Sequence record: PZ386973.1
Direction: 5' to 3' (one strand)
Source: a phage
Length of the DNA stretch: 64,000 nucleotides
The notes below the pieces were generated by a model. The model made no database searches and had not been told where the DNA came from. It saw only the letters and a program-made list of their open reading frames with translations. The stretch's first letter is position 1, and each line of letters opens with the position of its first letter. This document shows, piece after piece, positions 2,847 to 19,396 of this stretch. The translations under genes were made by a program, and so were the position numbers.

Positions 2847-3353
2847 TTACACCTTAAATTGTTGTAAGGATTTACACATTTCAAGATCCGGGCTAAATTC
2901 TAGCATATAGCTAACAGCTTTTAAATCTTGAAGATTTATCCCAGTCCTACCGTTGACTATAACTGTTGGATACTGATACATCATAGCACCAGCATCATCA
3001 AGCACACACCAATGTTTGAGCTTATGCTTTTCAACGAAGCGAAGAACAGAATTACCCCTAGATAATCCACCACCAGTAAAATCCGTTGTACCAAGAAAAC
3101 GATCGATAAGACCTAATCCGGTCATAATTCGAACGTTCTCCATTTCATTTTTAACAGAAAACCACGAAGATACCCCAACAATCATTATTGAAGAGGGACG
3201 AATAAAATCCTGAAAAGCCTTGAGAAGTGGCTTAAAAACCCAATCACTTCCGAAGAAGATCTTTTCATCATCCGGCGCATGGTGGTGCGAGATGCTCGAA
3301 TTGAGCACCCCATCAATATCTAGAAAAATAACTGGAGTATTACTTATTTCCAT
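2847..3353 (-). CDS. HAD-superfamily phosphatase-like protein
   Basis: N-terminal FLDIDGVL (DxDG motif I). Confidence 0.55.
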   Translation of the reverse strand: MEISNTPVIFLDIDGVLNSSISHHHAPDDEKIFFGSDWVFKPLLKAFQDFIRPSSIMIVGVSSWFSVKNEMENVRIMTGLGLIDRFLGTTDFTGGGLSRGNSVLRFVEKHKLKHWCVLDDAGAMMYQYPTVIVNGRTGINLQDLKAVSYMLEFSPDLEMCKSLQQFKV

Positions 3354-3522
3354 TTTTGTTCCTTTCTAAGAACGTATCATACTCAACCGTATCAACATAT
3401 ATGACACCATAGTCATCGGATTTATAGTCCATTTCCCACAGCTCACAGCGATAACACCAACTACCATCCGCCCATACAAATATATCATCGGGATGTGTAT
3501 ATACAGATTTAACTATAGACAT
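3340..3522 (-). CDS. hypothetical small protein
   Basis: Track ORF, overlaps its neighbours in operon fashion. Confidence 0.35.
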   Translation of the reverse strand: MSIVKSVYTHPDDIFVWADGSWCYRCELWEMDYKSDDYGVIYVDTVEYDTFLERNKNGNK

Positions 3523-4337
3523 ATTTGTTTCCCTGGCATATAAGGTCTACCCTCTAAATGAGCTTCCACACGAGCAATAAAATCAGGATCACTGAAAGCA
3601 TCTACCGCACCTTTACTCCAGTAAGGGACCCCACGTTCTTCCAGCTGGTACATCTCACTACGAGTCATACCTTGATAGCCGGGCTCCGCTGCTAGAGCAC
3701 TATCATAGTAGTTAACAACCATAAGTTTCGCAGCAGTCAAATTAAGAACAGGAAATAATTCCCAGTAGAAGTTAATTACTTGGTTAGAGCAACCAACTAC
3801 AATAATCATATCTTGACTGGTAATACTGTCAAAAACATTATACATTTCTGCGTATGCAGGAGCATGCTCTCCAAAGAAGATTACATTAGGTTTAGCCCAT
3901 TTATAATCATCCGGATCGATAGAACTGTATCCTACATCAATAATCCGTTTATTGCTACTATTGTATCTATCAGCTACAACAACCTCTTTTAAATATCCGT
4001 GAATGTGCAGAATGTCACTATGTGGAACGCCAGCACGCTCAATAAGGTCATCAACGTTGGTAGTCAAGTTTACTACTTGACCAGGGTATTGTTTATGCCA
4101 TTCACCAATACGCAAATGCGCAAGATTGGGTTCGACAGTTTTTAGCTCTTCACGACGCTTGTTATAAAACATATGGGTTTTATGGTAAAAATTACCACGA
4201 AAGGCATGAATATTACATACTTCTTCTAGATCATAATCATCCCACAATGCTTTACCACTAGCAGTATCAGTACGAAAAGCTCGTACACCACTTTCAACGC
4301 TCAAACCTGCACCGCTAATAATAATTACTCTACGCAT
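3513..4337 (-). CDS. Sir2-like NAD-binding protein
   Basis: GAGLSVESGVRAFR (sirtuin GAGIS..SG motif), TTNVDDL (TQNID-like), HIHG catalytic His; no Zn-ribbon cysteines seen. Confidence 0.6.
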   Translation of the reverse strand: MRRVIIISGAGLSVESGVRAFRTDTASGKALWDDYDLEEVCNIHAFRGNFYHKTHMFYNKRREELKTVEPNLAHLRIGEWHKQYPGQVVNLTTNVDDLIERAGVPHSDILHIHGYLKEVVVADRYNSSNKRIIDVGYSSIDPDDYKWAKPNVIFFGEHAPAYAEMYNVFDSITSQDMIIVVGCSNQVINFYWELFPVLNLTAAKLMVVNYYDSALAAEPGYQGMTRSEMYQLEERGVPYWSKGAVDAFSDPDFIARVEAHLEGRPYMPGKQICL

Positions 4338-4551
4338 TTTTCACCTGTTCTCTGAAGTTTTGCCCAATGCTGTCTAATAGCTCAGCTAATTCTTTATTGC
4401 CTTTCTCCATTAAGGTATTAGCAATAACTTCTAGCATAGTAGCACAGGATTCAACACCATCCTTATAGCCAGTTTCCCACTGCTGCATTAATGCATTTTC
4501 CAAAGCGGCATTTAAACCATTATCTGGTAGCATCGGCTTCGAGAATGCCAT
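4330..4551 (-). CDS. hypothetical protein
   Basis: Track ORF. Confidence 0.4.
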   Translation of the reverse strand: MAFSKPMLPDNGLNAALENALMQQWETGYKDGVESCATMLEVIANTLMEKGNKELAELLDSIGQNFREQVKNA

Positions 4552-13449: not shown

Positions 13450-13478
13450 TTGCTTACTGAGTGAAATTTAGATATAAT
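13450..13478 (+). promoter_or_regulatory. early promoter module
   Basis: TTGCTT-N17-TATAAT followed by TTTATAAATCGGAGA. Confidence 0.5.
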
Positions 13479-13502
13479 ATATTTTATAAATCGGAGACAA
13501 CT

Positions 13503-13757
13503 ATGGGACTCTTTAAAAAGAAAGTTTATTTAACACAAAGTCAAGAACGTAGGTTCTTAGCTCTGTCTCAGTATTATCACTTACCTTTCGATCATTTTGT
13601 AGAACGGGCGTTAGAACAATTCCTAGAAAAGGAATTAAAGGCAATTAGACCTGAACCGCCAAGAGTACCAAATGATGCACAGAGAGGTCATCCATGTATT
13701 CCTCCTATGCCGCCAATTCCTCCAGCGACTAGGGTAATTATAGAAGGCGAAAACTAA
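13503..13757 (+). CDS. hypothetical protein (Pro-rich C-terminus)
   Basis: ATG 13503 after GGAGA; the track start 13461 lies inside the promoter. Confidence 0.45.
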   Translation: MGLFKKKVYLTQSQERRFLALSQYYHLPFDHFVERALEQFLEKELKAIRPEPPRVPNDAQRGHPCIPPMPPIPPATRVIIEGEN

Positions 13758-14026
13758 TGTCTATTCTTTTATCTGCTTTAGAAGCAAAACAAAATACTAT
13801 TGCTGTTATTAAACAGGAAGTACTTAATCTAGAGTCACTTATTGCCGTAGAGATTGATAAAGCAATCAAAGAAAAAGAATTTAACTGCCATATTCAGGGA
13901 TTAACTGAATATTCAGAAAACGCCAGAAACAGCGTTATGCAACGACTCACTAAACTAGGCTATGTCGTAGAAGCTAAGTATGAGCAGCGTGAAGGTTTTT
14001 GGCTTGAAATTGACTGGAGCAAATAA
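13757..14026 (+). CDS. hypothetical protein
   Basis: Track ORF, ATGA overlap. Confidence 0.45.
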   Translation: MSILLSALEAKQNTIAVIKQEVLNLESLIAVEIDKAIKEKEFNCHIQGLTEYSENARNSVMQRLTKLGYVVEAKYEQREGFWLEIDWSK

Positions 14027-14522: not shown

Positions 14523-14551
14523 TTGCTTAAAGCTCTCTAATTTAGTATAAT
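14523..14551 (+). promoter_or_regulatory. early promoter module
   Basis: TTGCTT-N17-TATAAT. Confidence 0.55.
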
Positions 14552-14578: not shown

Positions 14579-14863
14579 ATGCGGATTTATAACTCAAATT
14601 CATTAGGATTTAAACCATTGAGAAAACGTGCACAATCACCTCGTCAAATAAGAAAGGCTAATATTGGTGAGCCAGAAACACGTCTTCCACCTCCTCCAGA
14701 ACAACGTTTAGTTTATCTGGACGAAGAATTAGCTGAACGCGAAAGAAAAGCTCAAGAAGAGATTGAGCGTAAGAAAATGTGTACTGCTCCAGCCTACTCC
14801 AAGGGGGCTTATCAGTATATCTATACAGCCGAGGAGGCTAAAGATGCGGGGCGTAAAAAATGA
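14579..14863 (+). CDS. hypothetical protein
   Basis: Track ORF downstream of promoter. Confidence 0.45.
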   Translation: MRIYNSNSLGFKPLRKRAQSPRQIRKANIGEPETRLPPPPEQRLVYLDEELAERERKAQEEIERKKMCTAPAYSKGAYQYIYTAEEAKDAGRKK

Positions 14864-15309
14864 AGATTACTGAATTTAAAGGTACTTATAGTTTCTTATC
14901 TAACTTTTATTTATCACCAATTACTTTCGAATATCTAAATGAGATATGGCATGCTGATACTGTAGAACATGCCTTTCAGGCTATGAAATCCGACCAAAAA
15001 GATGATGTAGCTCATGTACTGCGCTCCCTAAGTGCAGGAGTTGCCAAACGTAGGGGACGTAAATTAACTCTGCGCTCTGACTGGGATAAGGTAAAAGATG
15101 ATGTAATGCTAGAGCTTTTACGGTTAAAGTTTGCAATCCCTGATTTGAGAGACAAACTGTTAGCAACAAAAAATGCAACTTTGGTCGAAGGAAATACCTG
15201 GGGAGATACATATTGGGGTGTTTGCCGAGGCATCGGGGATAATACTTTAGGAGTTCTTTTGATGCAGGTAAGGTCTGAAATTAAAAGAAGCTTACAGTTA
15301 ATAAATTAA
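14860..15309 (+). CDS. NADAR-domain (YbiA-like) protein
   Basis: YSFLSNFY...HAEHAFQAMK...GNTWGDTYWG pattern. Confidence 0.6.
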   Translation: MKITEFKGTYSFLSNFYLSPITFEYLNEIWHADTVEHAFQAMKSDQKDDVAHVLRSLSAGVAKRRGRKLTLRSDWDKVKDDVMLELLRLKFAIPDLRDKLLATKNATLVEGNTWGDTYWGVCRGIGDNTLGVLLMQVRSEIKRSLQLIN

Positions 15310-15317
15310 AAATTCAT

Positions 15318-15346
15318 TTGCTAAACGCTTCAAATTCTCGTATAAT
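15318..15346 (+). promoter_or_regulatory. early promoter module
   Basis: AAAAATTCATTTGCTA...TATAAT...CATAAATTGAT. Confidence 0.6.
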
Positions 15347-15384: not shown

Positions 15385-15900
15385 ATGGCTAAGCAGAAAA
15401 ACGCAAAAACTCAAGCAGCTCCGGCAGTTAAAACTTTCCCTCAGACTGAGGCTAATCGCAAAGCTCGTCTGGAACGCCACCTGCGCAAGCATCCTACCGA
15501 TGCTCAGGCTGCGCAAGCACTGAATAACCCGGCTCCGATTCGCCAGAAACCTAAGGCTAAGAATACTGCTCGTTCTGTAGCCCGCCTTGTAACCTATGTG
15601 CAGGGTTATGGTCACAAATCTGTTCCAGTAACACTGAGTTTCAATGCTGGGGCTGAATTGTTCCCTCGTAATGGCATGGCTATGAAAGACTATGAGAAGG
15701 CAGTTAACCAGAAGCGTAAACCAACGGCAGATGTACTTCGTGACACTCGTGGCCAGTTTGGTTCTGTTAAACCAAATATTTTTGGCGTAGAATATAGCAA
15801 AGATAACGTTCGTGCTCTGTGCTACGGTGTAGGAATTAAGTTCACCGGCGATTCTGCTCGTAAATCTGCTAAACCAGCTCGCAAGCGTAAAGCGAAGTAA
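15385..15900 (+). CDS. basic, Lys/Arg/Ala-rich protein
   Basis: Track ORF; highly basic termini. Confidence 0.5.
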   Translation: MAKQKNAKTQAAPAVKTFPQTEANRKARLERHLRKHPTDAQAAQALNNPAPIRQKPKAKNTARSVARLVTYVQGYGHKSVPVTLSFNAGAELFPRNGMAMKDYEKAVNQKRKPTADVLRDTRGQFGSVKPNIFGVEYSKDNVRALCYGVGIKFTGDSARKSAKPARKRKAK

Positions 15901-18574: not shown

Positions 18575-19396
18575 ATGGGTAAATTACAAAAACAAATACT
18601 ACCATATATAGATTATATTCGAGAAATTATAGAGTATAATCCTTATACCGGTAAATTATTTTATAAGCCTAATAAATACAAGAATAAAACTTGGCACACC
18701 CTATATGCTGGGAGAGAAATATGTAGTAAGAACTCTGATGGGTACATCAGGGTTAGTTTGCTATTAGATAATAAACCCACAATTATTTATGGACACCGAA
18801 TAGCGTGGTTGCTCCATTATGGTGAAGAGCCGCCTTATATGATCGACCATATAAATACCATACCGTGGGATAACAGAATTATTAATCTAAGAGAGACAAA
18901 TTTTAAGTTAAATAGGATTAATACTAGTAAAACCGTAGGTGTAGAACTCCTCCCCGAGGGTTTTGTGTATAGCATTACATTAGGTGGAAAGTTTTTCGTA
19001 TCTCCTGGCTTCACCACTTTCGAACAAGCTAAAGTAGAAAGAGAAAAACTAGTAAATGGTTTATGTAATGCAGAAATTGGGAAGCAGACCAATATTCTAA
19101 TAGACGATGTTAGAGATTTACCTGAAATGTCCATTATTTGTCGTACAGTTATAGGTGCGCTGGAACTATCAGATGTGTTTAGTTTTACAGGATCCTATTT
19201 ATTTATGGACTCAGATTTAGGAGATCCAGAGGTACAAGGAAAAGATTTATTAGATCATATACTATCATTAGGTCAAAGACCCCTAAAAGTGATTCTAGTA
19301 ACATCTAATCCTGTTGACGCAGAGTACATGAGAGGTACTCTTACGTCTTATGGATACCGAGAAAATCCCAATAGATTAGAATATGATCTATTTTAA
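18575..19396 (+). CDS. HNH homing-endonuclease-like protein with C-terminal extension
   Basis: GHRIAWLLHYG...IDHIN...NLRETN HNH-type motif in the N-terminal half. Confidence 0.65.
   Translation: MGKLQKQILPYIDYIREIIEYNPYTGKLFYKPNKYKNKTWHTLYAGREICSKNSDGYIRVSLLLDNKPTIIYGHRIAWLLHYGEEPPYMIDHINTIPWDNRIINLRETNFKLNRINTSKTVGVELLPEGFVYSITLGGKFFVSPGFTTFEQAKVEREKLVNGLCNAEIGKQTNILIDDVRDLPEMSIICRTVIGALELSDVFSFTGSYLFMDSDLGDPEVQGKDLLDHILSLGQRPLKVILVTSNPVDAEYMRGTLTSYGYRENPNRLEYDLF

Follow-up and report, generated by a model that had tools for sequence, protein, structure and literature searches.

A NADAR gene of a T5-like phage is an orthologue of the anti-DarTG1 factor AdfN-Bas32

The gene at positions 14860..15309 (+ strand) of the analysed stretch of PZ386973.1 (64,000 nucleotides, hereafter the window) is an orthologue of a published and experimentally characterised anti-DarTG1 factor, the NADAR of the phages Bas32 and Bas33, named AdfN-Bas32 ("anti-DarT factor NADAR") by Johannesman et al. 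2025 (Nat Commun 16:1598, PMC11825919). The window belongs to a T5-like phage (Tequintavirus, Markadamsvirinae), and the gene very probably encodes an orphan, antitoxin-like enzyme of the AdfN-Bas32 type, acting early in T5-like infection and reversing guanine ADP-ribosylation by DarT1. It is already known, with nothing biologically new beyond that study. The assignment places the phage in a subset of T5-like phages already equipped against the DarTG1 abortive-infection system, which helps host-range prediction and the choice of therapeutic phages. Many names of the gene in GenBank ("swarming motility protein", "GTP cyclohydrolase II", "hypothetical protein") are misleading.

The identity with AdfN-Bas32 was set via the bas32 and bas33 locus tags. 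The window protein shares 97% identity with bas32_0066 of IrisVonRoten (QXV80247; T9A, S58N, K104E and V109I) and 99% with bas33_0070 of HildyBeyeler (QXV80081; S58N and V109I), the genes lying at 3001-3447 of the extracted Bas32 and Bas33 loci. None of the four substitutions relative to Bas32, nor of the two relative to Bas33, falls at a conserved position of the 72-sequence family alignment (positions 9, 58, 104 and 109, the last being V or I throughout). The proteins share the length of 149 aa, the genus Tequintavirus, the slot between the homologues of T5.090 and T5.089, and the active-site residues, and the order of the genes on either side is identical. Changes between the gene and its orthologues are mostly synonymous, 6-8 nucleotide differences lying in synonymous codons as against 2-5 in non-synonymous codons. 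The closest protein in the phage collection has 98.7% identity, and the exact allele is absent among the matches listed. From this comparison we infer that the window allele, with two to four substitutions, would behave as AdfN-Bas32. Johannesman et al. call the Bas32 and Bas33 NADARs "identical", whereas the GenBank translations have A (Bas32) or T (Bas33) at residue 9 and E (Bas32) or K (Bas33) at residue 104.

In the same paper, T5 is described as strongly restricted by DarTG1; AdfN-Bas32 neutralises the toxicity of DarT1, a guanine-specific DNA ADP-ribosyltransferase, in uninfected E. coli, and when expressed ectopically it allows T5, RB69 and Bas25 to plaque again on DarTG1 hosts. Restriction of T5 by the thymidine-modifying DarTG2 is reported there as unaffected by AdfN-Bas32. 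The proposal of the sequence-only reading, that a phage NADAR may counter DNA ADP-ribosylation by DarT-type toxins, has thus been demonstrated experimentally for a protein 97-99% identical to that of the window. By analogy with the same experiments, the proposal is refined: the activity of the window protein should be limited to the guanine-modifying DarT1 of DarTG1, with no rescue from DarTG2. The Bas32 protein was assayed via ectopic expression, and in the portions of PMC11825919 used here no Bas32 or Bas33 mutant with the gene knocked out was found; counteraction of DarTG1 would be the native, selected role in the window phage.

The gene is an open reading frame of 149 aa plus stop (ATG to TAA). 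It is a real gene encoding a clear NADAR-domain protein, with a match far beyond chance: the profile search, an empty result of which had been named in advance as the refutation, gave Pfam PF08719 (NADAR, DUF1768) with 80.1 bits (gathering cutoff 35.1 bits) and E 2.9e-22, residues 9-142 being aligned to profile positions 9-163 of 163. The protein also matches PHROG 1017 (E 1.3e-44). Sequence search of the PDB retrieved E. coli YbiA (2b3w, E 1e-15) and the Phytophthora nicotianae NADAR (PnNADAR; 8bau, E 3e-7), and a profile of 72 relatives retrieved the same two entries at E 2.3e-36 and 4.7e-19, respectively; neither search matched the DarG1-type NADAR of Geobacter (8bat). An AlphaFold2 model built from the alignment of 72 relatives (mean pLDDT 97.7, pTM 0.91) superposes on both structures, the top Foldseek matches in the PDB being 2b3w (TM 0.82, 39% identity) and the ADP-ribose-bound 8bau (TM 0.78), each with probability 1.00, while 8bat is marginal (TM 0.52, E 0.41). 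The YbiA-like fold, with its alpha-helical core, suggested earlier from motifs is therefore borne out by the PF08719 match and the model. As to the motifs themselves, YSFLSNFY is correct (residues 10-17), whereas the second one had been quoted slightly off, as HAEHAFQAMK: residues 31-43 are actually HADTVEHAFQAMK. The E-x6-K signature of the family is present (E36 to K43, within VEHAFQAMK).

Defence-related models were also compared with the protein. Membership in NCBIfam NF053876 ("NADAR family anti-phage protein") was rejected at 47 bits against a cutoff of 240. In the PADLOC scan no DarG model matched, and the candidate family PDC-M42C did so only weakly (E 1.3e-6).

Residue equivalents were taken from HMMER alignments (the 2b3w and 8bau searches) and residue roles from Schuller et al. 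2023. By these alignments, the ADP-ribose-binding and catalytic residues of the NADAR family are conserved in the window protein. The putative catalytic pair is E36 and K43, equivalent to PnNADAR E43 and K50, which correspond to E88 and K95 of the E. coli C7 protein (Schuller et al. 2023). K63 aligns with PnNADAR K75 and is the counterpart of E. coli C7 K115, which is required for rescue in vivo. G66 and R67 align with PnNADAR G78 and R79, D74 with D86, W75 with W89, D116 with D130 and W119 with W133; K79 stands for R93, a conservative change, and the adenine-stacking tyrosine Y84 is not conserved, its place being taken by R72. E110, in the context LVEGNTWGD, aligns with PnNADAR E125, a position which is a signature of the subfamilies: it is Glu in YbiA, Asp in DarG1/BC4488 (E. 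coli C7 D171) and His in T4-type phage NADARs (Schuller et al. 2023). In the 72-sequence family alignment E36, K43, K63, E110, D116 and W119 are invariant and W75 is nearly so.

The mechanism proposed on this basis is as follows. When DarTG1 of the host is triggered, the DarT1 toxin puts ADP-ribose on guanines (N2) of the phage DNA and replication is blocked. The 149-aa protein, a predicted ADP-ribosyl-guanine DNA glycohydrolase, would bind the ADP-ribose moiety, with K43, R67, W75, D116 and W119 on the pyrophosphate and with E36 and E110 flanking the distal ribose in the active site. Hydrolysis of the N-glycosidic bond between ribose and guanine would then yield unmodified DNA and allow replication to resume, which would resemble the action of a type IV antitoxin, here in orphan form. 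Thymidine adducts made by DarT2 would not be acted on. The chemistry assigned to single residues is carried over from work on the Phytophthora and E. coli C7 NADARs and should be read as putative for the window protein.

Among the characterised NADARs, YbiA is nearest to the window protein both by sequence and by modelled fold. Its structure (2b3w) is the closest solved one, and the two share a compact single domain, the E-x6-K motif and Glu at the position of PnNADAR E125. YbiA is reported to hydrolyse guanine-linked ADP-ribose (G-ADPr) in vitro but not to rescue cells from DarT1, whereas rescue is seen with AdfN-Bas32, the orthologue of the window protein. Since YbiA fails to protect from DarT1, similarity alone would not predict the activity of the window protein, and the anti-DarT1 assignment is therefore made from the experiment on the orthologue, not from membership in the family.

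The NADARs of DarG1 from DarTG1 systems (E. coli C7; Geobacter lovleyi, 8bat) belong to the same superfamily and share with the window protein the E/K pair and the lysine corresponding to K63. They reverse guanine ADP-ribosylation by DarT1, and by analogy the window protein would carry out the same reaction. It differs from them, however, in that its gene has no DarT1 among the ten flanking ORFs, in having Glu110 instead of the BC4488-type Asp, and in the weak match to the 8bat fold with no match in sequence. Moreover, the N-terminal beta1-beta2-alpha1 extension of DarG1, which carries a basic putative DNA groove and has been proposed to bind DNA in DarG1-type NADARs, is absent, the window protein beginning directly with the YbiA-like core. 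A DarG1-type antitoxin was ruled out by the missing DarT neighbour, Glu in place of Asp, the lack of the extension and the TM of 0.52 to 8bat.

AdfN-T4 (T4 gp30.3) is likewise an orphan phage NADAR that counters DarTG1, and its sequence aligns with E36 and K43 at the profile level. The T4 type was nevertheless ruled out by the BLASTP E-value of 1.2, by an hhalign match (probability 89%) covering only about 60 N-terminal columns, and by Glu110, the T4-type NADARs having His here. The two also differ in reported behaviour: according to PMC11825919, AdfN-T4 is fully effective only in T-even infections and, unlike AdfN-Bas32, does not neutralise DarT1 in uninfected cells. In that paper AdfN-Bas32 is grouped with "archaeal-type" NADARs and NADARs are said to have been co-opted by phages several times, a conclusion with which the separation of the window protein from the T4 type agrees.

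The resemblance to YbiA bears on two other readings. The first holds that the protein is a de-ADP-ribosylase of broader spectrum, whose main selected targets are other than DarT1-modified phage DNA, the reversal of DarTG1 being one of several activities; such targets could be guanine- or cytidine-linked ADP-ribose on RNA or single-stranded DNA, made by other toxin ADP-ribosyltransferases (ARTs; pierisin/ScARP-like or YarT-like), or guanine nucleotides of the dNTP pool that carry ADP-ribose. E110 is the YbiA-type Glu and the protein is closest to YbiA; published work reports that cytidine-linked ADP-ribose (C-ADPr) is removed by YbiA- and NADAR-family members and not by DarG1 or T4 NADARs, that NADARs also act on G-ADPr in RNA, and that YarT, a non-DarT ART, has a myxobacterial YbiA-type protein as its antitoxin. 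The gene adjoins nucleotide-metabolism genes, and Johannesman et al. suggest that detoxification of other ADP-ribosylating defences may be the task of some phage counter-defences. However, the DarTG1 phenotype suffices to explain the retention of the gene, and the broader spectrum adds to the AdfN-Bas32 assignment without excluding it; as the main selected role we consider it improbable. A milder claim, that the T5-type AdfN with Glu110 is a generalist nucleic-acid de-ADP-ribosylase also taking C-ADPr and RNA G-ADPr, is by analogy with these relatives less remote, though still doubtful. If it were true, T5-like phages would be shielded from ART defences beyond DarTG1, or the dNTP pool supplied by nrd, frd and thy would be cleared of ADP-ribosylated guanine nucleotides.

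The second of these readings, a housekeeping YbiA/COG3236-type N-glycosidase of reactive riboflavin-pathway intermediates, a role in which YbiA has been reported, draws on the best NCBIfam match (TIGR02464, "riboflavin biosynthesis intermediates N-glycosidase"), on YbiA being the closest solved structure and on deposited labels ("GTP cyclohydrolase II", "N-glycosidase", "swarming motility protein YbiA"), but it is highly unlikely because TIGR02464 scores 68.1 bits, below its curated cutoff of 73.7, because no riboflavin genes were found near the gene and because the near-identical Bas32 protein has a demonstrated anti-DarT1 phenotype, while riboflavin damage control would be of no evident use to a lytic phage. 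The window gene stands alone among phage early genes, with neither a riboflavin-pathway fusion or context nor the LexA-controlled dinG-ybiB context. Across T5-like genomes the deposited names disagree further, and they also include "DUF1768 domain-containing protein", "NADAR domain-containing protein", "antitoxin-like enzyme" and "hypothetical protein".

The surroundings of the gene fit the AdfN-Bas32 assignment into a T5-type early region. The first 25 kb of the window are about 95% identical to Escherichia phage vB_EcoD-Elw (Tequintavirus, Markadamsvirinae) and its relatives, and the 3.1 kb around the NADAR gene are 97% identical to vB_EcoD-Elw. The gene order, all on the + strand, is nrdA, nrdB, frd, thy, two small ORFs, rnh, the T5.090 homologue, the NADAR gene and a DUF7022 gene (T5.089 homologue, 15385-15900). 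The upstream neighbour is the T5.090 homologue (14579..14863, +), a 94-aa ORF with no Pfam match, and its stop overlaps the start codon of the NADAR gene (ATGA), which makes co-transcription and translational coupling of the two probable. Upstream of them a sigma-70-type early promoter is predicted (TTGCTT-17-TATAAT, 14523..14551, +); the 121-column stretch containing it has a mean column identity of 95% to the T5 region with the annotated promoter upstream of T5.090, and by analogy with the T5 annotation this promoter likely drives the unit of the T5.090 homologue and the NADAR gene. Downstream, a promoter equivalent to P-H207 and conserved relative to T5 (TTGCTA-17-TATAAT, 15318..15346, +) serves the DUF7022 gene; the interval from the NADAR stop to this promoter has no predicted intrinsic terminator.

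The gene had been described as lying in the nucleotide-metabolism operon. It is indeed co-directional with nrdA-nrdB-frd-thy-rnh and downstream of them, but it has its own conserved T5-type early promoter and is the second gene of a two-gene unit. This short early unit, with the NADAR gene as its second cistron, lies next to the nucleotide-metabolism genes, so that "operon" is right only in a loose sense.

Pfam searches of ten flanking ORFs left five without a match, the rest being RNase H, DUF7022, DUF7230 (weak), an Rv2179c-like exonuclease and HNH plus cREC. As no ADP-ribosyltransferase domain was found in these ten ORFs, the NADAR gene is an orphan.

Comparison with T5 delimits the insertion. 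In T5, the gene T5.090 is directly followed by P-H207 and T5.089, and NADAR is absent at the locus. The last 14 or so codons of the T5.090 homologue diverge from T5.090, forming the left junction, and from about 15307 onward the window and T5 are identical, which places the right boundary next to the P-H207-equivalent promoter; by this alignment, the two junctions bracket a cassette of about 450 bp. In the phage collection, the surrounding 3.1 kb were matched by 444 records and the NADAR gene was present in 96, always with at least 95% nucleotide identity. The gene is an accessory cassette of T5-like phages. Its composition gives no sign of recent foreign acquisition relative to the flanks (GC content 37.6% in the gene, 37.8% and 40.4% in the flanks).

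Several records of the collection deserve separate mention. Salmonella phage vB_SenS_UTK0009 (OQ359889.1), also T5-like, has a NADAR that is 59-60% identical to that of the window and is encoded at 4001-4450 of the extracted locus, between rnh and the T5.090 homologue, not after the latter. This NADAR, present in no other phage of the collection, suggests that T5-like phages acquired a NADAR a second time, independently. A T5-type NADAR gene with 97.6-98% nucleotide identity was found in the records of Listeria phages LM 4-11-1 and 4-14-1 (OR847649.1 and OR848833.1, 2-3.5 kb), which are probably T5-like contigs under an ill-fitting host label. The 138-kb record of Klebsiella phage KPP2018 (OQ031075.1) has a gene 97.1% identical to that of the window.

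A scan of GTDB genomes yielded 364 confirmed cellular relatives, the best 80 of which were kept. These 80 are 45-55% identical to the phage protein and come from many bacterial phyla and from one Pacearchaeota MAG. Clustering of their immediate neighbours revealed no recurrent conserved gene, neither a toxin ART nor riboflavin genes: the largest cluster covered seven of the best 80 of the 364, several clusters consisted of noisy high-GC ORFs, and some contexts were phage-like. In two MAGs, one of Bryobacterales (OZ241991.1) and one of Azotimanducaceae (OZ241908.1), we found at least four dispersed copies of the NADAR subfamily each, 47-50% identical to the phage protein. The copies in these two MAGs showed no neighbour gene in common, and they may be carried by prophages or other repeated mobile elements.

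Elsewhere in the region, two small ORFs of 98 and 89 aa with no Pfam match lie between thy and rnh (13461-14026, +). This interval differs among relatives: T5 has only a promoter here, the Bas32 record has no gene and the Bas33 record has one. Small ORFs nearby are named "tail length tape-measure protein" or "metallopeptidase" in some records, which look like errors of annotation transfer. Farther downstream, the homologue of T5.084 (18575-19396, +) encodes 273 aa, whereas in T5 and vB_EcoD-Elw the product is a cREC_REC receiver-domain protein of 105 aa; about 170 aa of the window product form an HNH_3 endonuclease module, fused in frame at the N-terminus of a diverged cREC domain. Its equivalent in the Bas33 record carries an intein annotation that begins after residue 2; the gene resembles a homing-endonuclease fusion more than a canonical intein.
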